Of a stretch of DNA of 32,289 nt, positions 2,074 to 31,281 are shown one piece after another (position 1 is the stretch's first letter; every line of letters starts with the position of its first letter). This stretch comes from a virus. The notes beneath the pieces were generated by a model. That model had not been told where the DNA came from and did not search any database. It was given only the letters and a program-made list of their open reading frames with translations. The position numbers were made by a program, and so were the translations under genes. Location of the stretch: the IMG/VR virus record IMGVR_UViG_3300045988_100918. One strand, written 5' to 3'.

Positions 2074-3258
2074 CTAACCCGACGCGCGGCGCTTCGCTTC
2101 ACTGAAGAGCTGAGCCGCCGCCGCGTCTCGTCCGGGCATCAGGTGGCCGTAGATTCGAAGCGTCGTTGCTTCGTCCGCGTGCCCCATGCGCTCCGATAGC
2201 GTCTTCAGGTCGCATCCGTTGGCGATGAGCCACGAAGCGTGCGTGTGCCGCAGGCTGTGAAACGTGATCTCTCGCGGCAGTCCGCATGCGTCGCGTATGC
2301 GGCTGAAAGCCCGTGAAATCGTCGTTGGGCGCATGTAAGAGCCGTCTAGCGTCACCAGTGGGCAATCAGCGCCCAAGCGCCCCAGAACGTCGCCCTGAAG
2401 CTTCGTGAAGGCATCAATGACCGCGATATCGTCTTGCGTGAGCGCGATGTTGCGGCACTTGCGGCCTTTGGTCACGTTGCGGCGATAAGGCTTCTTGCCT
2501 TTGCCCTCAATGACGTTGCCGCCGACGTGGACGTAAGACAGGGTGCGCTTAACGTCGATGCGCTGCACCGCGCAGACCTCGCCAACGCGCATTCCGGTAA
2601 CGAGCGACAGCCACGAAGCGAAGGCGTAGACGGCGGCGCGGTAATCGGCTCTCGTCTCGACCTCCTTGCTAAGCGCGCCCTCTAGCTTCCCGTTGAAGCC
2701 CTCGAAGTTCCATTCGGTTAGCGCCGAAGCTTCGTGCCGTTCCGGCGATGGTTTGGCGACGTACACCAGCGGGTTAGCGTCGCAAATGCCAGCGTCTACG
2801 AAGTGGTTATAAGCGCCGCGCAAGAAGTTGTGGACGTTGATAACGCTGTTGCGGCAAAGACCTTGCCCGCCTTCGTCCTTCGCCATGAGCAAGCGTTGCT
2901 CAAAGCGGTTGAAGTCCATAACGCCAAGATCGCGTGCGTTTGCGGTCTTCAGATAACGTGCGACGTAGCGGCAAAACAGCCGATAGCTCTTAATGCTGTT
3001 CGGGCTTGCTCCGTTGCGCTCGCGCAGTTGCACGTAGTCTTCGAGCAAATCGGTCAAGCGGGCGCTTCTAACCGTTCCGTCAGCCGTCACGTAAGCCGCC
3101 CACGTCTCAGCGAGGGCTTGCGCTTCCTCTTCGGTTGCCGCATTCGGAAACCGCTTGTAAGGGCGAATCGCCTTGCCGTCGATGCTGCGACCAAGGTACA
3201 ACCGGCACTCGAAAACGCCATCTGCACCGCGCTTGACCTTAACGCCCATCATGACCAC
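2074..3258 (-). CDS. int: site-specific tyrosine integrase (phage-type, with N-terminal arm-binding-like domain)
   Basis: C-terminal catalytic pattern ...GMRVGEV..., HSLRHTHASWL, LGH...TT..Y (R-H-R-Y family). The N-terminal approximately 60 aa resemble an integrase DNA-binding domain. Confidence 0.9.
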   Translation of the reverse strand: MVMMGVKVKRGADGVFECRLYLGRSIDGKAIRPYKRFPNAATEEEAQALAETWAAYVTADGTVRSARLTDLLEDYVQLRERNGASPNSIKSYRLFCRYVARYLKTANARDLGVMDFNRFEQRLLMAKDEGGQGLCRNSVINVHNFLRGAYNHFVDAGICDANPLVYVAKPSPERHEASALTEWNFEGFNGKLEGALSKEVETRADYRAAVYAFASWLSLVTGMRVGEVCAVQRIDVKRTLSYVHVGGNVIEGKGKKPYRRNVTKGRKCRNIALTQDDIAVIDAFTKLQGDVLGRLGADCPLVTLDGSYMRPTTISRAFSRIRDACGLPREITFHSLRHTHASWLIANGCDLKTLSERMGHADEATTLRIYGHLMPGRDAAAAQLFSEAKRRASG

Positions 3259-5698: not shown

Positions 5699-5977
5699 CT
5701 ATTCCTCTTCATCGCTTGAAATGTCGTAGGCAATCGAGCTGCCAACGTAGGTGAGCAGCTTTTGCATGTGCTTAACGGTGCTCGGCTCGGGCTTCGCGCC
5801 ATCTTCAAGCAGAGTGTCAACCCATGCGAGGGTGCCGCGAACGATTGCGAGCGTGGCGCTCATATCAACGTCGAAGCCCTCGCCGGTCTTGGGATTAATG
5901 AGCGACATGCTGCCGTTGAGGGCGAAGGTGCCAGCGCCGACCTTGGCGATAGTCTCGGTGATCTCTTTACGCTTCAT
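5699..5977 (-). CDS. hypothetical protein
   Basis: ATG at 5977 with an AAGGAGAAG RBS. The ORF track extends to 6127. Confidence 0.4.
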   Translation of the reverse strand: MKRKEITETIAKVGAGTFALNGSMSLINPKTGEGFDVDMSATLAIVRGTLAWVDTLLEDGAKPEPSTVKHMQKLLTYVGSSIAYDISSDEEE

Positions 5978-7563: not shown

Positions 7564-8491
7564 AAAAGAGAAGTTACAAGCGATTGACCCAAAGAAGGTA
7601 ATCGTTTTTGATACCGAGACAACCGGCTTGAACATCGGCGGTTCTCGCCGCGATGAAATACTGTCGCTCGCTGTCATGAATCTTGACGGTGACGTTCTGT
7701 TTTGCGACCTATTGAAGCCATCGGAGCGCAAAAAGTGGCCTAAAGCGGAAAGCATAAACGGAATATCTCCGTCTATGGTGAAGGACAAGCAGACGATTGT
7801 AGAAAGGCGTTCGGAAATTGAACCGATTTTCAAGAACGCTAAGCTATACGTCGCATACAATGCCGATTTCGACCTAGGATTTCTTCGAGCTTCAGGCTTG
7901 GATATACCAGATCATCAGACGTTTGACGTGATGAAGGAGTTTGCGAAGATACACGGCGCATGGGACGGCACGCATGCTGAATGGTCATGGTGCAAGTTGG
8001 AAGATTGCGCAGCGTTCTACGGATATCGTGACTTTGGGGCGCATGACGCCTTGAACGACGTAAGAGCAACAGCGCATTGCTTCAATTCGATTCTCGATGA
8101 TTTTCTTTTTGGTGAGCCGCGCCGCCGCCCGAAGCGCGTAAAGGATGAGTTCGGCGATTCGTATTTCGAGTATGGCGACGAAGAGTTTAGAAGCATCGTT
8201 TGCAGCGGCTATGCTGCCGCATTGGCCGACACTGACGAACATACTAACAACGCGCCATCGGCTAACGAGGTTCAGCAGCAAGCCAAGGATGAAAAAGACA
8301 GCGTGGATAATCAACCGGACAGAAACCATGCCGTGCCAGATCGGCGGAACACGAATAAAGCATTGGTGTTAATCGGTTCCGTTTGCGTATTGATTGGGCT
8401 TGCAATCACTGTTTTAGGCGCAGCAATCGTTGGTGTCCCGATTGCTATATTGGGCGCTTTGCTTGCCATAGGTTCAAAGGGAAGGAAATAG
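7556..8491 (+). CDS. DEDDh 3'-5' exonuclease (DnaQ-like) with C-terminal transmembrane anchor
   Basis: VFDTETTGL (Exo I), YNADFDLGFL (Exo II), HDALNDVRATAHCF (Exo III, H-x4-D). The C-terminus has two hydrophobic helices (LVLIGSVCVLIGLAITVLGAAIVGVPIAILGALLAIG). Confidence 0.8.
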   Translation: MTRKEKLQAIDPKKVIVFDTETTGLNIGGSRRDEILSLAVMNLDGDVLFCDLLKPSERKKWPKAESINGISPSMVKDKQTIVERRSEIEPIFKNAKLYVAYNADFDLGFLRASGLDIPDHQTFDVMKEFAKIHGAWDGTHAEWSWCKLEDCAAFYGYRDFGAHDALNDVRATAHCFNSILDDFLFGEPRRRPKRVKDEFGDSYFEYGDEEFRSIVCSGYAAALADTDEHTNNAPSANEVQQQAKDEKDSVDNQPDRNHAVPDRRNTNKALVLIGSVCVLIGLAITVLGAAIVGVPIAILGALLAIGSKGRK

Positions 8492-8583
8492 AAAACCCTG
8501 CGCGGCTTCTTGGCGGTCGGCGCGCAGGGCAAGTGCAAAGAACGAAGCGCAATTGCGCGCTCGCTCTAAGGGGTGATTTTAGC

Positions 8584-10155
8584 ATGGTGAAGAACCGAGC
8601 TGCCATATACGCGCGGTTCAGCTCGCACAACCAACGCTCAGAAAGCATTGAGATACAAGTTGAGAACTCACGCGAATACTGCGAGCGTGAAGGCTTGCAT
8701 GTCGTGCGCGAATACTGCGACTATGCGCAGACAGGGCGCAACGTAGATCGAGCAGAGTTCCAACGGATGATGAGCGATGCGAAGCTTGGTCTATTTGATT
8801 TTGTGGTGATTTACAAGGTAACTCGCATAATGCGCAACCGCGATGAAATGGCATTGGCGCGAATCATGTTGCGCAAGGCTGGTGTAGAAATACTTTATGC
8901 GGGCGAAGAGATAGCGAGCGGTTCGAGCGGTGTTCTTCAGCTTGGAATGCTCGAAGTTCTCGCAGAATGGGAAAGCGCAATCGACAGTGAACGCATTAGA
9001 GACGGAATCCAGAAGAACGCCGAACGGTGCATGGCTAATGGTCGCACTCTCTATGGATGGGATATCGTAGAAGGACGCTACGCCATCAACGAGCGAGAAG
9101 CCGCAGTGCTTAGGCGCATGAAGAACCTTTTGTTTAGCGGTAACTCAGTAGCGGAGATCGTGCGCGCCGTTGACGCTGAGCGCAGCAAGCGCGGCGCAAA
9201 GTTCAATCAGGATACCGTCACCAAGCTTCTAAAGCGAGTGCAGAACGCAGGTGTCTACAAGTACGCAGGACACGAGGTAGAAGGCGGTATGCCAGCCCTA
9301 TGGTCACAAGCAGAACAGGATATGATAAACAGCATCCTTAGCGACCGTCACCGCCCACGAAGGAAGGTTGACAGCGCGCTAGAGTTCCCGCTTAGCGGAA
9401 AGCTCTATTGCGCTCGATGCGGAATGCCAATGGCCGGAACAAGCGGAACCTCTAAGAATGGTTCTGCCTATCACTATTACAAGTGCCGAAAATGCCGCAG
9501 GACAGTTCGCCGAGACTTGATAGAAGATGCAGTGGTCGATATGACCTATGAAGCAGTAAAGCAAGCTGATGTGAGAAAACGCATTGCCAAGACGCTTGCT
9601 GGCTACGAAGCTGAGCGGGCGACCGAAGAAAAGCCCGAAAGCTACTTCATCAAGAAAGAGATTCGGCGTATCGACACCGCGTTTGAACGCATCTGGCAAG
9701 CGATAGAAGACGGCATAGCGCCGCCCGGTGGCAGAGAGCGTACAACCGAGCTGAAGCGACAGAGAGCGGAGTTAGAAGCCCGCTTGCGCGTTGCAGAGCA
9801 AGCGGAATCGCTCGAACCATCGGTTGACGATGTGCTTTTGTGGCTCGATGATCTCGCGAACGACACAACGCCTTTGGAAATCCTCAACGAGTTTGTCAGA
9901 TTCGTTGAGATTGACGGCAAAGATGTAACCGTCTACTTCATGTTTGACGAACTGCCGGACGATTTCACGCCAAAACAGAAAAAGGCCGAACACCCTTGCT
10001 ACCAAAGGTGTTCGACCAATTCTCTTGTGGTGGAGCTTATGAGAAAAACGGCGAACTCCACCAGTACCGCCAACCGCGCATCTATCCAGCTTGATACTTG
10101 CGTTGTTAGAGTATCGAAAAACTGGTTTGTTGTCGTTGGCACGTGTCAAAAATAG
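8584..10155 (+). CDS. large serine recombinase (phage-integrase type)
   Basis: N-terminal resolvase catalytic domain (AAIYARFSSHNQ..., serine nucleophile). Recombinase domain, zinc ribbon CARCG...CRKC, and a C-terminal coiled-coil. ATG at 8584; the ORF track extends back to 8383. Confidence 0.85.
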   Translation: MVKNRAAIYARFSSHNQRSESIEIQVENSREYCEREGLHVVREYCDYAQTGRNVDRAEFQRMMSDAKLGLFDFVVIYKVTRIMRNRDEMALARIMLRKAGVEILYAGEEIASGSSGVLQLGMLEVLAEWESAIDSERIRDGIQKNAERCMANGRTLYGWDIVEGRYAINEREAAVLRRMKNLLFSGNSVAEIVRAVDAERSKRGAKFNQDTVTKLLKRVQNAGVYKYAGHEVEGGMPALWSQAEQDMINSILSDRHRPRRKVDSALEFPLSGKLYCARCGMPMAGTSGTSKNGSAYHYYKCRKCRRTVRRDLIEDAVVDMTYEAVKQADVRKRIAKTLAGYEAERATEEKPESYFIKKEIRRIDTAFERIWQAIEDGIAPPGGRERTTELKRQRAELEARLRVAEQAESLEPSVDDVLLWLDDLANDTTPLEILNEFVRFVEIDGKDVTVYFMFDELPDDFTPKQKKAEHPCYQRCSTNSLVVELMRKTANSTSTANRASIQLDTCVVRVSKNWFVVVGTCQK

Positions 10156-12618: not shown

Positions 12619-13065
12619 TCAGCCCTCCGTCACCTCTCGCCAGACGGTTGCGGTGCCGGCAGCCCCCGGCTCCCAGACGTTGTTAGCAACGAGGGATTCC
12701 CAGACCTTGCCGTTGTGCTTCACGCGGGCACCGAGCGGATAGGGATTCGTAGAATCGGGCTGCACCCATTCGGGCGCTTCCTCTGTCGGCGTGTCGGGCG
12801 TTCTGGCTTCAAGCACCTTCGCCCAAAGGCTCGGCGCTGCCGTTGGTGACCAATCAGGCTGCGAAGTGTGCGCCTGAAGGCACGTGTAAAGCACGCCCTC
12901 GAAGCTCACGCGCTCGCCCTCGGAGTAGGCGTGGCCGTCGCCGTCCCACGCCGCGAAAAGCGCGGGGCACTTCGCCGCCACATCGCTAGAGAGCGACGGC
13001 GCTTGGCCGTCGAAAATGGCGATGATCGCGCGAAGCTTGCCCTCTTCCTCTTCGGTGAATGCCAT
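12619..13065 (-). CDS. hypothetical protein
   Basis: ATG at 13065 with an AAAGGGG RBS. The ORF track extends to 13089. Confidence 0.45.
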   Translation of the reverse strand: MAFTEEEEGKLRAIIAIFDGQAPSLSSDVAAKCPALFAAWDGDGHAYSEGERVSFEGVLYTCLQAHTSQPDWSPTAAPSLWAKVLEARTPDTPTEEAPEWVQPDSTNPYPLGARVKHNGKVWESLVANNVWEPGAAGTATVWREVTEG

Positions 13066-13084
13066 GTGTTCCCCTTTCTCTCGC

Positions 13085-13119
13085 AACAAAAAAGCCCCCG
13101 CTAATGCGAGGGCTTCGAT
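13085..13119 (-). terminator. rho-independent terminator downstream of the DGR RT gene
   Basis: AAGCCC..GC-TAAT-GC..GGGCTT hairpin followed by TTTTTTG on the minus strand. Confidence 0.6.
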
Positions 13120-13139: not shown

Positions 13140-14249
13140 TCAGCCGAAAAGCTCCTTGTATAGCGCGTCCATGCGCTTTACCGTCTCGTGCGCGCTAAGG
13201 CGCTTCATGCTGCCGCGCCACGACTGGTAGGATTGGTTGACCTGCTCGACGGTCATAATCCCCTTGGCGACAAGCGCGGCTTGCTTCTTCAGCTTGCGCC
13301 GCTGCCGCGTCACGGAGGAACGGCACGGGCGAACGACAACCTTTCCGCCCTCGCCATATGAAAACCTCTTCTTCAGGAACACGAAGCCGCGCGTCAGCTT
13401 CACAACGCGCGTCTTCTTGCGGTTGATGATGATTCCCAGATCGTCGCAGAGCGCTTCGATGCGCGAAAGAGCGTCCCAAAGCGTCTGCTTGTCAAGGGCG
13501 ATGCAATAGCTATCGTCCATGTATCGCCCGCTCGCCAAGATGCCCGGAAGGGACAGCATCAGATGGTCAACGGGCGACGGCAGGGCGACGGCTAGAATCT
13601 GGTTCGGCTCGCTGCCAAGACCCAAGCCGCGCGCGCCGTGAGCGTCTATCTGGTCGCTCATGACGCGCTTAACGCGCTCATCGTCAATGGCTCGGTCGAT
13701 AAGGCGCTTGCATGCGTCGTGGTCGATGTTTGCGAAGTAGTCCGCGAAATCGACCTGCAAGATGTAGCCTTCCGCTCCATGCTTTCGGTGGTGCTCGACA
13801 AGCTGGCGCTTCATGCGTCGAATCGCGTAGTCGGTGCCGCGCCCCTTGACGTTCGCTGTGCATCCCTCGGTGAGGGTAGGCCAGATCGCGGGCGCAAGCG
13901 CGTGACGGCTCAACGATTTCTGTATAACGCGCTCTGAGAAGTGGACAGAGCAGATGTGACGAAGCTTGCCGCGCTCGAACAAGTCAAACTCAATGAAGCC
14001 GCGCCGGAAGTCAGCGCCCGTGAGAAAGTCGCGCCGTGCTCTCATGATGTTTGGAACGACGCGCGCCATGTAGCGCTGAACGCTCGATTTCCAACGCACG
14101 CCAGCGGCAGCGCCGTTGGCGGCATCGTATAGGTTATCGAGATCGGCGACAGCTTCCAGCGTGCAACCCTCGATGCGCCTAGCCCGGTTCTCAGCGCGCT
14201 TGGCATCGCGCCTTGCGCGCCGCGCAGCCCTGCGCTCTTCAGAGTTCAT
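13140..14249 (-). CDS. DGR reverse transcriptase
   Basis: RT motifs with catalytic YMDD (SGRYMDDSYCIA) and upstream FADYFANIDH. Likely start MNSEERRAA at 14249. The ORF-track extension to 14537 would run across the template repeat and is not credible. Adjacent TR/VR pair and avd-like gene. Confidence 0.9.
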   Translation of the reverse strand: MNSEERRAARRARRDAKRAENRARRIEGCTLEAVADLDNLYDAANGAAAGVRWKSSVQRYMARVVPNIMRARRDFLTGADFRRGFIEFDLFERGKLRHICSVHFSERVIQKSLSRHALAPAIWPTLTEGCTANVKGRGTDYAIRRMKRQLVEHHRKHGAEGYILQVDFADYFANIDHDACKRLIDRAIDDERVKRVMSDQIDAHGARGLGLGSEPNQILAVALPSPVDHLMLSLPGILASGRYMDDSYCIALDKQTLWDALSRIEALCDDLGIIINRKKTRVVKLTRGFVFLKKRFSYGEGGKVVVRPCRSSVTRQRRKLKKQAALVAKGIMTVEQVNQSYQSWRGSMKRLSAHETVKRMDALYKELFG

Positions 14250-14460
14250 GAGGGCACCCCGCGCGGCTCGCAATCGGCATCCAGCAGCCGCTTGACGGTT
14301 GACCATGAAACGCGGTCGAACGCCGAGAACCGCGCCATGCAAGCAGCGAACGGCAACCGTCGCGGGGTGCATATTTACGGGCTTGCGCCCGATGGTCGCC
14401 CCTTCCTTCCTCAAATGCACGGCGCGCGGCGCTTCCGGCCGCACGGTCTGGCAATGCTTG
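14250..14460 (-). ncRNA. DGR spacer region between TR and the RT start, expected part of the TR-containing DGR RNA
   Basis: Non-coding GC-rich segment containing a GCGGC-GCTTCCG-GCCGC hairpin. Its position matches the spacer used to prime cDNA synthesis in characterized DGRs. Confidence 0.4.
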
Positions 14461-14589
14461 GGAATCACGGCAGCGGGCGCACCCAGTCGTTCGTCGGCGC
14501 ATTGTTGTTGGCATTGCCGTTGCTGTTGACATTGCACGCGCTAGACGAAGACCCGCCCATGACCGACCGCAGCCACCAATTGACGCGAT
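14461..14589 (-). repeat. DGR template repeat (TR)
   Basis: 129-bp near-copy of 15162-15290. On the minus (coding) strand it is rich in AAC/AAT codons (AAT GTC AAC AGC AAC GGC AAT GCC AAC AAC AAT). Mismatches to the VR are almost exclusively at template adenines. Confidence 0.9.
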
Positions 14590-14617
14590 GATTTCCAAGG
14601 GACAACGCGCGAACATT

Positions 14618-15028
14618 CTACCCATTTCCAATGAGCTTCACGCCCGCGCGAGCGCCCTTTATGAGCTTTATATCGTTCTCGATGCTCTCTGAGATCTCTT
14701 CGAACTTAGCCACCTTGACGGGTAGCTTCATCGCAAGAAGGCATTGCAGGTCTTGGTAAAGCTGGTTTAGGTCTGCCAAGGCAAGCGTCATGTAATGCTT
14801 GCGTTCCTCGACGTTCCGCTGTGTGTTCGGGTAGAAGGCATCAGCCTTCACAAGGTTGAACACCACGCTTCGCGCCGTCTCCGCCATGGGGACGGCGAAG
14901 ATGAAGCGATAGGATTTGGGCACCGCGCCCGAAGTGACAAGGCGCGTCACCTCGTTTCGAATCGAAACCGCAGTGTTGAAATACTCGAACGTGCTTAGGT
15001 TGCGGTTCCGCACATATACGCCGCTCAA
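14618..15028 (-). CDS. avd: Avd-like accessory variability determinant (small basic helical protein)
   Basis: 136-aa ORF sitting exactly between the target gene and the TR, as in the Bordetella phage mtd-avd-TR-brt cassette. Apparent TTG start preceded by GGAGGGG. Basic, helix-rich composition. Confidence 0.5.
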   Translation of the reverse strand: MSGVYVRNRNLSTFEYFNTAVSIRNEVTRLVTSGAVPKSYRFIFAVPMAETARSVVFNLVKADAFYPNTQRNVEERKHYMTLALADLNQLYQDLQCLLAMKLPVKVAKFEEISESIENDIKLIKGARAGVKLIGNG

Positions 15029-15061
15029 TTTGCAACATCCCCCCCCCCTCCGTGATTTTCA

Positions 15062-15098
15062 AAAAAATACTTCGCCCGCGCTTCGCGCGGGGAAGTAT
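15062..15098 (-). terminator. rho-independent terminator between the DGR target gene and avd
   Basis: TACTTCGCCCGCGC-TTC-GCGCGGGGAAGTA stem (15069-15098) followed on the minus strand by TTTTTTT (complement of 15062-15068). Confidence 0.7.
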
Positions 15099-15150
15099 GG
15101 GCGCATGCGCAAGGCATGCGCCAGACCTGTACCATATACGGCTGATTTTA

Positions 15151-16053
15151 TCAGCCTAGGAGGAAGCACGGCAGCGGGCGCACCCAGTCGTTCGTCGGCG
15201 CAGTGTAGCTGGCAAGGCCGTGGCCGCTGACAATGCACGCGCTAGACGAAGCCCCGCCCATGACCGACCGCAGCCACCAAATGACGCGACCGCCCGCGAT
15301 GCGGCTTGCGGTGTCGGTGAAGATTGGGAACTGCGAATCGAAGCCGACAGAGTAGCCCTTGCTGCCCCATACTGGGCACCCGTAAACCTCCATCTCTGAG
15401 GGCGACCAAATCTTGCCCAAGTCCGCCCAGCTCCAACCGCTCGCTTCGGTGAGCTTGCCCGAAGACGAATAGCGCTCTTCGAGAAGCACGCGCTGCGCGA
15501 GAATGGCGCTCTGAAGCGTGGACGGCAGCGCGGGCAAGAAATCGTTGATCTCCCAATCATGGAGCTTCGAGCACAAGTAAGGGTGCTTATCTTCGGCGGT
15601 GCCGTTGTTGTCGTTTGTCTCGCGCCACTGAAGGTAGCTCGTGTTGGATGCCTTGTCGCCCTTCACGGTGACGGGCGCTTTCGGCACCATGACGATATGA
15701 TGCCCCTTCGCGGTGTCTCCGCACTGGTAATACTGGTCGATAGCGCCGATGCGGTAGCGCACCGTCTGCGCTGGCACGTTAGCGCCCTCGGAAACGGGAA
15801 CGTCGATGTAGTCTCCGATGCGCAGACCGGCGAAGTTGGCGTTTCGCGCGCGGTTGCGAAGCCACGTGTAAATGTCGGTGCTGCCGATCTCGTTAGCGAA
15901 GACCGAAGCGAGCGAGCGCCCCGCGTAAGCGTTGATGTTGTGCTGGCGGTCGTATTCCTCGGCGGTCGTGACAGAATCGGCCTTGCTCTGCGCTGAAGTG
16001 TCCTTCAGGTTGTACGCGGTGCCATTGATAGAAAACTTCGACAAATCAGCCAT
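15151..16053 (-). CDS. DGR target protein: tail fiber / receptor-binding protein with a variable C-terminus (presumed C-type-lectin-like)
   Basis: 300-aa ORF in the tail module. Its C-terminus ...SSSACIVSGHGLASYTAPTNDWVRPLPCFLLG is encoded by the VR. Variable residues I, S, G, H, L, S, Y, T correspond to N/S codons in the TR. Confidence 0.8.
   Translation of the reverse strand: MADLSKFSINGTAYNLKDTSAQSKADSVTTAEEYDRQHNINAYAGRSLASVFANEIGSTDIYTWLRNRARNANFAGLRIGDYIDVPVSEGANVPAQTVRYRIGAIDQYYQCGDTAKGHHIVMVPKAPVTVKGDKASNTSYLQWRETNDNNGTAEDKHPYLCSKLHDWEINDFLPALPSTLQSAILAQRVLLEERYSSSGKLTEASGWSWADLGKIWSPSEMEVYGCPVWGSKGYSVGFDSQFPIFTDTASRIAGGRVIWWLRSVMGGASSSACIVSGHGLASYTAPTNDWVRPLPCFLLG
15162..15290 (-). 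repeat. DGR variable repeat (VR) at the 3' end of the target gene
   Basis: Aligns to the TR with offset +701 and 13 mismatches. The 36 bp at the 3' end of the coding strand (15167-15201 region) are identical to the TR, as expected for an IMH-like invariant segment. It encodes the last 43 codons of ORF 15151..16053. Confidence 0.9.
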
Positions 16054-31193: not shown

Positions 31194-31281
31194 TGGCGGA
31201 GCGTGTAGGATTCGAACCTACGGGCGACAGTGCGCCACACGGTTAGCAACCGTGCGCAATAAGCCACTCTGCCAACGCTCC
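31194..31281 (-). tRNA. tRNA-Ser (anticodon GCU), class II with long variable arm
   Basis: Minus-strand sequence GGAGCGT.../...ACGCTCC forms a 7-bp acceptor stem. 3-bp D-stem. Anticodon stem CACGG/CCGTG with loop TTGCTAA (anticodon GCT). Variable arm GGCG-CACTGT-CGCC. T-arm GTAGG-TTCGAAT-CCTAC. CCA is encoded. Confidence 0.85.

Follow-up and report, generated by a model that had tools for sequence, protein, structure and literature searches.

An apparently active diversity-generating retroelement at the tail-to-lysis junction of a temperate Collinsella siphophage

The prototype diversity-generating retroelement (DGR) is the mtd-avd-TR-brt cassette of Bordetella phage BPP-1, in which a target gene with a C-terminal variable repeat (VR) is followed by a four-helix accessory protein gene, the template repeat (TR), a structured RNA and the reverse transcriptase (RT). 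Its substitutions are adenine-specific and fall mostly in AAY codons, its VR has an invariant, G+C-rich 3' end beyond which TR and VR mismatch and is followed by a hairpin, and the cassette is part of a temperate phage's tail-fibre module. The same gene order, substitution pattern, repeat ends, downstream hairpin and placement recur in the stretch of viral DNA analysed here, IMG/VR record IMGVR_UViG_3300045988_100918, whose full 32,289 nt we call the window and in which the cassette is coded on the minus strand. We are highly confident that a complete and canonical DGR of a temperate Collinsella (Coriobacteriaceae) siphophage of about 32 kb occupies this region and that it is active now or was so very recently.

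By contrast with BPP-1, the RT of the window aligns only weakly with its prototype counterpart (45 bits), the accessory protein goes unseen by the Pfam model for Avd, the target is a 300-aa DUF6273 protein rather than Mtd, and the structured RNA is RT-2 (about 220 nt) instead of RT-10. Moreover, a single TR/VR mismatch is found on the side of the element for initiation of mutagenic homing (IMH), and the host is a gut actinobacterium. Protein-level searches identified Roseburia phage Shimadzu (LR596903.1, orf22-orf24) as the closest described relative. Its cassette has the same architecture and spacing, with a tail fibre carrying a 129-nt C-terminal VR, a 136-aa protein annotated as Avd, the TR, an RT-2 RNA (144.9 bits), an RT 46.7% identical to that of the window and lysis genes thereafter. 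Shimadzu has a Bacillota host, whereas that of the window belongs to the Actinomycetota, and its target is longer (431 aa); a nucleotide search of the INPHARED phages with the 3-kb cassette returned no match, and so none to Shimadzu.

Targets with DUF6273, in which the VR closes the domain on its C-terminal side, are also carried by other temperate gut phages, namely the Faecalibacterium prophages Lelie, CP11, Roos and Pioen and the gut phages nd4/nd12 (PMC11792537, PMC10743442). Some of these have two targets or N-terminal VRs (tentaclins), in contrast to the one VR of the window, and the RTs of Pioen and Roos are about 31% identical to the window RT. For the architecture of the cassette, its target domain, its accessory protein and its RNA, counterparts have been described; thousands of DGRs built in this way are catalogued from gut viromes, and our knowledge of how DGRs work is left unchanged by this one. 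Its modest new points are the placing of the Rfam RT-2 motif as the RNA that follows the TR in this DGR lineage and a conserved one-base marker at the repeat ends. In addition, it offers a clean and well-populated natural example of an apparently active DGR from a phage of Collinsella, an actinobacterium abundant in the human gut. No description of a Collinsella DGR turned up in a literature search, and one apparent match was rejected, as it concerned the CspRecT recombineering protein. With dozens of public alleles that share one TR, the system lends itself to studies of tropism switching or to use as a compact chassis for a DGR (about 2.9 kb).

Adenine-specific variation between the repeats

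TR and VR are 128-nt direct repeats, 91% identical at an offset of 701, and they form the only long direct-repeat family that a repeat search detected between 12 and 18 kb in the window (Table 1). The A-rich copy, the TR, is non-coding, contains an in-frame TGA and occupies the space between the accessory gene and the adjoining RT gene; the A-poor copy, the VR, is the 3' end of the gene for the DUF6273 tail-module protein. When the whole window was scanned on both strands with an adenine-masked TR, only the TR itself and the known VR matched, and hence no second VR was found.

Table 1 Features of the DGR cassette, with positions in the window
Feature	Position	Strand	Description
DGR target gene	15151..16053	-	300-aa tail-module protein; DUF6273 at residues 142-294; VR = residues 256-297
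Variable repeat (VR)	15162..15289	-	12 differences from TR, 11 at TR adenines
IMH-like VR 3' end	15162..15187	-	A-free, G+C-rich CTGGGTGCGCCCGCTGCCGTG, then CTTCC; C at 15166 is the fixed difference from TR
Hairpin GGCTGAT-AAA-ATCAGCC	15140..15156	-	overlaps target stop codon; partly conserved in relatives
Hairpin GGCGCATGC-CTTGC-GCATGCGCC	15100..15122	-	about 40 nt 3' of VR
Terminator-like hairpin, then T7	15061..15091	-	in a subset of relatives only
Accessory gene	14618..15028	-	136-aa Avd-like four-helix-bundle protein; TTG start; between VR and TR
Template repeat (TR)	14461..14588	-	intergenic; 24 adenines; nine AAY codons in VR frame
Fixed TR adenine	14465..14465	-	TGATTCC (TR) opposite TGCTTCC (VR)
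Rfam RT-2 (RF03077) structured RNA	14234..14456	-	223 nt; 99.9 bits (gathering threshold 40), E 3e-22; model 1-222 of 222
Stem-loop in RT-2	14424..14444	-	8 bp, one bulged C, GGAA tetraloop; 17 nt after TR
Conserved purine box GAGGAAGGAAGGGG	14399..14412	-	single-stranded in RT-2 model
DGR reverse transcriptase	13140..14249	-	369 aa; ATG at 14249 (MNSEERR...); PHROG 1423, Pfam RVT_1
Terminator-like hairpin with T-run	13091..13116	-	just past RT stop codon

An earlier, sequence-only reading of this DNA had listed 13 mismatches between the repeats and their edges, and a base-by-base comparison at +701 reproduced that list exactly (14465, 14502, 14506, 14508, 14514, 14515, 14521, 14524, 14526, 14532, 14551, 14580 and 14589). 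All but 14551 are T on the plus strand, that is, A on the coding minus strand. Position 14551 is A on the plus strand, corresponds to a T-to-G change on the coding strand (S268A) and is the sole non-adenine difference within the repeat. The proportion claimed by that reading, 12 of 13 differences at template adenines, is therefore correct, and becomes 11 of 12 without the boundary base 14589, which is the first base of a non-homologous flank whose next seven bases (14590-14595 and 14597) differ too. Given 24 adenines in 128 nt, the placement of 11 of 12 mismatches at adenines departs strongly from random expectation (hypergeometric P = 1.1e-8), and the bias persists when 14465 is left out (10 of 11, P = 7.5e-8). 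Within 14461-14588 the adenine changes reach all three other bases (four A to T, four A to C and three A to G).

The codon strings quoted by the sequence-only reading, and the changes of N to I, S, H, L, S, Y and T and of S to G that it drew from them, are correct in the frame of the 300-aa open reading frame (ORF). Its statement that every adenine-site change lies within an AAY codon is accurate for nine of the 12, distributed over eight codons (N258I, N274I, N276S, N278H, N280L with two substituted bases, N282S, N283Y and N284T), but fails for S277G, which arises in an AGC codon, for 14465, the third base of TGA/TGC, and for 14589 at the edge of homology. Because the variable adenines sit mostly in AAY codons, diversification would be free of nonsense changes: 23 mutable adenines, distributed over 14 codons of which nine are AAY, allow a computed 7e13 DNA variants and about 3e13 protein variants, with no stop codon possible.

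Related loci were collected by scanning one genome per species and from IMG/VR, and 47 distinct TR/VR pairs were compared, 19 of them in a first set. The genome scan returned 22 loci with an RT 81-99% identical to that of the window, almost all from Collinsella and other Coriobacteriaceae, as well as more distant RT copies in a Prevotella assembly (58%) and a Treponema metagenome-assembled genome (42%); IMG/VR contributed 37 further loci. Across the 47 pairs, TR and VR differ at 475 of 1170 adenine sites (40.6%) versus 18 of 4799 non-adenine sites (0.38%; C 4/1889, G 4/1731, T 10/1179). An even spread of changes across the four bases, which the sequence-only reading had named as the outcome that would speak against it, was thus not found.

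The same 47 pairs comprise 13 distinct TRs versus 47 distinct VRs. The exact TR of the window is shared by six genomes or contigs, among them the five loci L001, L002, L025, L027 and L060, with a different VR in each. Over about 10 kb, two of these loci (L001 and L002) match the window at 99.4-99.7% identity, and the 128 nt of the VR hold 15 of the 46 and 18 of the 50 differences, respectively, all at TR adenine sites but one, 15252, which is the window's own T-to-G change. Since genomes this similar, with the same TR, carry different VRs, we consider the element active or very recently active. The protein record is of the same kind. The 90%-identity clusters of the target in the protein collection hold hundreds of member sequences, and six sampled members are identical to the window protein over residues 1-255 and differ from it at 10-12 of the last 45 residues, the differences falling at residues whose TR codons contain adenine. 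Identical TRs with different VRs, differences concentrated in the VR and proteins identical outside it together bear out the earlier suggestion that the element is, or recently was, active.

Half of the rare non-adenine differences (9 of 18) are T to G. They occur in loci L006, L011, L016, L033, L034, L038, L044 and L060 and at 14551/15252 of the window, where the change was private to the window VR among the first 19 pairs, and the resulting S268A recurs in the database alleles P0253 and P0268. These T-to-G changes may represent a secondary error signature of the RT, or drift.

At their 3' ends, both repeats contain the A-free 21-nt stretch CTGGGTGCGCCCGCTGCCGTG (14466-14486 in the TR and 15167-15187 in the VR), which never varies among the 47 pairs, followed by five terminal bases that read ATTCC in the TR and CTTCC in the VR in 47/47 pairs. 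The IMH element had previously been delimited as an invariant 36 bp. The stretch quoted for it is 35 nt long and invariant in this allele only: its four adenines (14494, 14491, 14490 and 14487) are mutated in 2, 11, 4 and 3 of 19 pairs and, because they are substituted in relatives, belong to the mutable zone. As judged from these alignments, the invariant end is at most ~21-26 nt. The mismatch at 14465, formerly counted among the products of mutagenesis, has to be read differently as well. The TR has A and the VR has C there not only in every pair compared but also in two distant DGRs, the TGATTCC/TGCTTCC contrast likewise ending the repeats of the Treponema DGR (L024, ~5761-5767) and of phage Shimadzu (L062, ~2671-2677), whose RTs are 42-47% identical to that of the window. 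The position is thus a fixed marker that sets the IMH* of the TR apart from the IMH of the VR and is never transferred. Because 14465 is immune to transfer, the information in the complementary DNA (cDNA) would begin 5' of it.

Proteins and RNA of the cassette

On the minus strand, the cassette proceeds from the target gene with its C-terminal VR through a conserved hairpin, the Avd-like gene, the TR and the RT-2 RNA to the RT gene, and all of its ORFs are intact. The RT matches PHROG 1423 with an E-value of 3.5e-62. Its best match in the PDB is the RT of the Bordetella phage, bRT (8UB7; E 6e-11, 45 bits; residues 33-355 of the query against 10-313 of bRT), followed by a group II intron maturase at 1.5e-4 over 85 residues. 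Residues R74, D138 and Q187 and the YMDD motif of bRT align with identical residues of the window RT, and I181 aligns with a leucine.

The accessory protein was compared at the level of structure. Its AlphaFold2 model (15 homologues) has a predicted local distance difference test score (pLDDT) of 82 and consists of four long helices in a bundle. In a Foldseek search of the PDB, the six best matches are chains of 2GSC and 2RLD, with template-modelling (TM) scores of up to 0.92 normalised on the target, and BPP-1 Avd (4DWL) comes next (TM 0.75-0.82, root-mean-square deviation 2.3-2.9 Å); 2GSC and 2RLD are presumably members of PF05635, the family that includes Avd. Searches of PADLOC, and sequence and profile searches of the PDB, gave no Avd match. 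However, the protein is homologous over its full length to the 136-aa annotated Avd of phage Shimadzu (28% identity, E 2e-15). On the grounds of the fold comparison and the Shimadzu homologue, we take it to be a divergent Avd.

Reverse transcription in DGRs is said, on the strength of a recent finding, to depend on structured RNA around the TR. In the window, the RT-2 RNA begins 5 nt past the TR and ends over the RT start codon. The motif starts ~5-7 nt from the TR end in five DGR loci of three phyla, comprising the window, L011 (5797-6019), L015 (5794-6015), the Treponema locus L024 (5774-6014) and Shimadzu (L062, 2682-2905). By analogy, we propose that the RT-2 RNA is the equivalent of the spacer (Sp) RNA of BPP-1 and may have its role in cis-priming. 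The motifs RT-1 to RT-19 were originally described merely as motifs near RT genes (Weinberg et al. 2017, PMC5737381), among which RT-10 was tied to the BPP-1 DGR, whose spacer it covers, and other RT motifs were speculated to serve other DGRs (PMC5737381). The later mentions of RF03077 found in the literature were limited to the Rfam 15 paper and its preprint, in which RT-2 is among the structure-refined families.

Two elements within the RT-2 RNA deserve mention. The stem-loop at 14424-14444 shows two compensatory pair changes in L015-L018 (G-C to A-U and C-G to A-U). An Avd-binding stem-loop just downstream of the TR has been reported in 207 of 278 DGRs (Handa and colleagues, bioRxiv 10.1101/2023.10.23.563531), by analogy with which the stem-loop of the window is a candidate Avd-binding site. 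The other element is the conserved purine box GAGGAAGGAAGGGG, and it is speculative that it pairs with the terminal UUCC of the TR as a template-primer duplex.

The target contains DUF6273 (PF19789; E 1.6e-9, 38.3 bits against a cutoff of 23.5) and has 691 homologues, with PF19789 in nearly all of the 120 homologues listed. DUF6273 has been modelled as a C-type lectin in other DGR targets (PMC10743442, PMC11792537). A PDB profile search with the target gave chance matches only, such as cytochrome oxidase. As the gene comes after those for Dit, Tal and a BppU_N protein, its position suggests that the target is a receptor-binding protein, with host-range adaptation as the likely role of its variation.

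Three hairpins come between the target and the accessory gene. The one at 15100-15122 is identical in all 18 loci of the Collinsella group, in flanks that have diverged, and the TR has no such hairpin 3' of it. It may be a target-recognition hairpin or cruciform that marks the VR as the recipient, by analogy with the published work on target recognition in BPP-1. The terminator-like hairpin at 15061-15091, between the target and accessory genes, lies within a segment of ~45 nt that is absent from L011-L013, L021 and L015-L018, and transcriptional coupling of the target with the DGR genes may thus differ between lineages. A scan for sigma-70 promoters gave no minus-strand candidate upstream of the accessory gene.

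Between this hairpin and the accessory start there is also a run of ten G (15039-15048, minus strand), 7 to 10 long among close relatives. A shift of the accessory reading frame by the run was considered and rejected, given a conserved TTG start (MSGVY) 10 nt downstream of it. Variation of the run could reflect slippage, assembly noise or a ribosome-binding-site or expression switch.

Proposed mechanism and competing explanations

The mechanism that we envision is modelled on BPP-1. The repeat pair, its adenine specificity, the genes and folds of the cassette, the RT-2 RNA and the VR diversity among near-identical genomes are shown by the data, whereas we infer the extent of the RNA, cis-priming, the cDNA start site, the role of the hairpin and the receptor-binding function of the target. 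A complex of RT and the Avd-like protein would bind an RNA that runs from the 3' end of the avd-like gene through the TR and the RT-2 region. Synthesis of cDNA would be cis-primed from the spacer-like RT-2 RNA and would begin inside GCGCCCGCUGCCGUG, which places the start within the G+C-rich 3' terminus of the TR and 5' of its fixed adenine (14465). The RT would then misincorporate random nucleotides opposite template adenines, and the cDNA would replace the VR, a step in which the IMH-like end and probably also the conserved hairpin downstream would act as guides.

A broader hypothesis, which we hold only tentatively and would not quite back at even odds, is that RT-2 is the cis-priming spacer RNA of a widespread DGR lineage in phages and prophages of Actinomycetota, Bacillota and Spirochaetota, with an Avd too divergent for Pfam. 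Under this hypothesis, the marker UGAUUCC of the TR (UGCUUCC in the VR) and the GGAAGGA box of RT-2 would define the template-primer duplex and the start of the cDNA, and the rare non-adenine changes, T to G in half of the cases, would constitute another and weaker signature of RT error.

Several observations weigh against the assignment of this locus to an active, canonical DGR. One difference in the window, 14551, is not at an adenine. Activity is inferred from differences between assemblies, the comparison being one of assemblies and not of reads from a single population. Motif 4 of the RT reads LGSEPNQ as opposed to IGSLTSQ in bRT (LGxxxNQ versus IGxxxSQ, with N for S). The accessory protein has no Pfam or NCBIfam Avd match, and its Foldseek E-values are marginal for a simple helical bundle (best 1.4e-3). 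The AlphaFold2 model of the target is poor (21 homologues; pLDDT 57, and below 50 in the VR domain) and does not confirm a C-type lectin fold. Finally, shuffled sequence reaches minimum free energies as good as those of the TR and RT-2 region (z -0.35 and +0.8), and for this reason our statements on RNA rest on the covariance model and on compensatory changes in relatives.

These reservations are best judged against what else might have produced the locus. A single window cannot show ongoing activity, and the difference at 14551 could be drift after homing, as expected of a decayed relic, a DGR that once worked but is now inactive and whose TR/VR differences are old. Such a relic is nonetheless very improbable in view of the intact ORFs, the 15-18 VR sites at which genomes of 99.4-99.7% identity and with the same TR differ, the 47 distinct VRs of the 47 pairs and the 10-12 VR residues that vary between proteins identical in residues 1-255. 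It is harder still to maintain that an ordinary duplication, or diversifying selection acting by point mutation or recombination on the tip of a tail fibre, generated the repeats, the adenine pattern being a matter of chance or codon bias. The receptor-binding tips of phages are commonly hypervariable without a DGR, but chance would have to overcome P ~1e-8 in the window alone and the disparity between 40.6% of adenine and 0.38% of non-adenine sites in relatives, and selection on a tip does not account for a second copy that is non-coding, stands beside a bRT-like RT and is nearly constant (13 TRs versus 47 VRs). We accord this explanation hardly any credence.

Equally little speaks for an RT and RNA of another retroelement class, be it a retron, a group II intron or a defence-associated RT, that happen to lie next to a repeat. 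NCBIfam and PADLOC do report weak matches to group II intron, retron and DRT RTs, far under curated cutoffs where these are listed, and a role in retrons was the speculation of Weinberg et al. for many of the RT motifs. However, the best full-length relative of solved structure is bRT (E 6e-11), as opposed to 1.5e-4 over 85 residues for the maturase; the RT scores 55 bits with group_II_RT_mat against a cutoff of 300, and 16-21 bits with the retron/Drt models against 200-550; a scan of the window with Rfam covariance models found no intron or retron RNA family, and no intron RNA domains were detected. TR, VR and Avd are also arranged exactly as in phage Shimadzu, whose annotated gene order is of DGR type, and we regard membership of another class as remote. 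What the sequence-only reading had proposed, adenine-specific mutagenic homing by a DGR, is instead upheld by the repeat pair, the bRT-like RT, the Avd fold of the accessory protein, the position of the VR in the target and the diversity of VRs in the population.

Phage context and neighbouring features

In this temperate siphophage, the cassette lies where the tail genes give way to the lysis genes. The target is preceded on the minus strand by genes for the large terminase, portal, major head protein, tape measure, Dit, Tal and a BppU_N baseplate protein. On the 3' side of the RT come a CBM_5_12 protein, a holin, a C39-like peptidase and a GH25 endolysin, and then a large serine recombinase on the opposite strand. 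The CBM_5_12 protein, of 156 aa and with a carbohydrate-binding module, is encoded at 12619-13089 (minus strand), directly downstream of the RT and ahead of the holin.

The window holds two recombinases, a tyrosine integrase at 2074-3258 (minus strand) and the large serine recombinase at 8383-10155 (plus strand). The left 8 kb could represent a module of their own or the region for lysogeny and replication. Near the terminase end lies a tRNA-Ser(GCT) gene (31194-31281, minus strand), which could be phage-encoded or part of an attachment site. About ten IMG/VR contigs with the same RT, including L027, L028, L031, L041, L042, L047 and L058-L060, are 32-33 kb long, matching the 32,289 bases of the window, which is probably a complete phage genome or viral contig.

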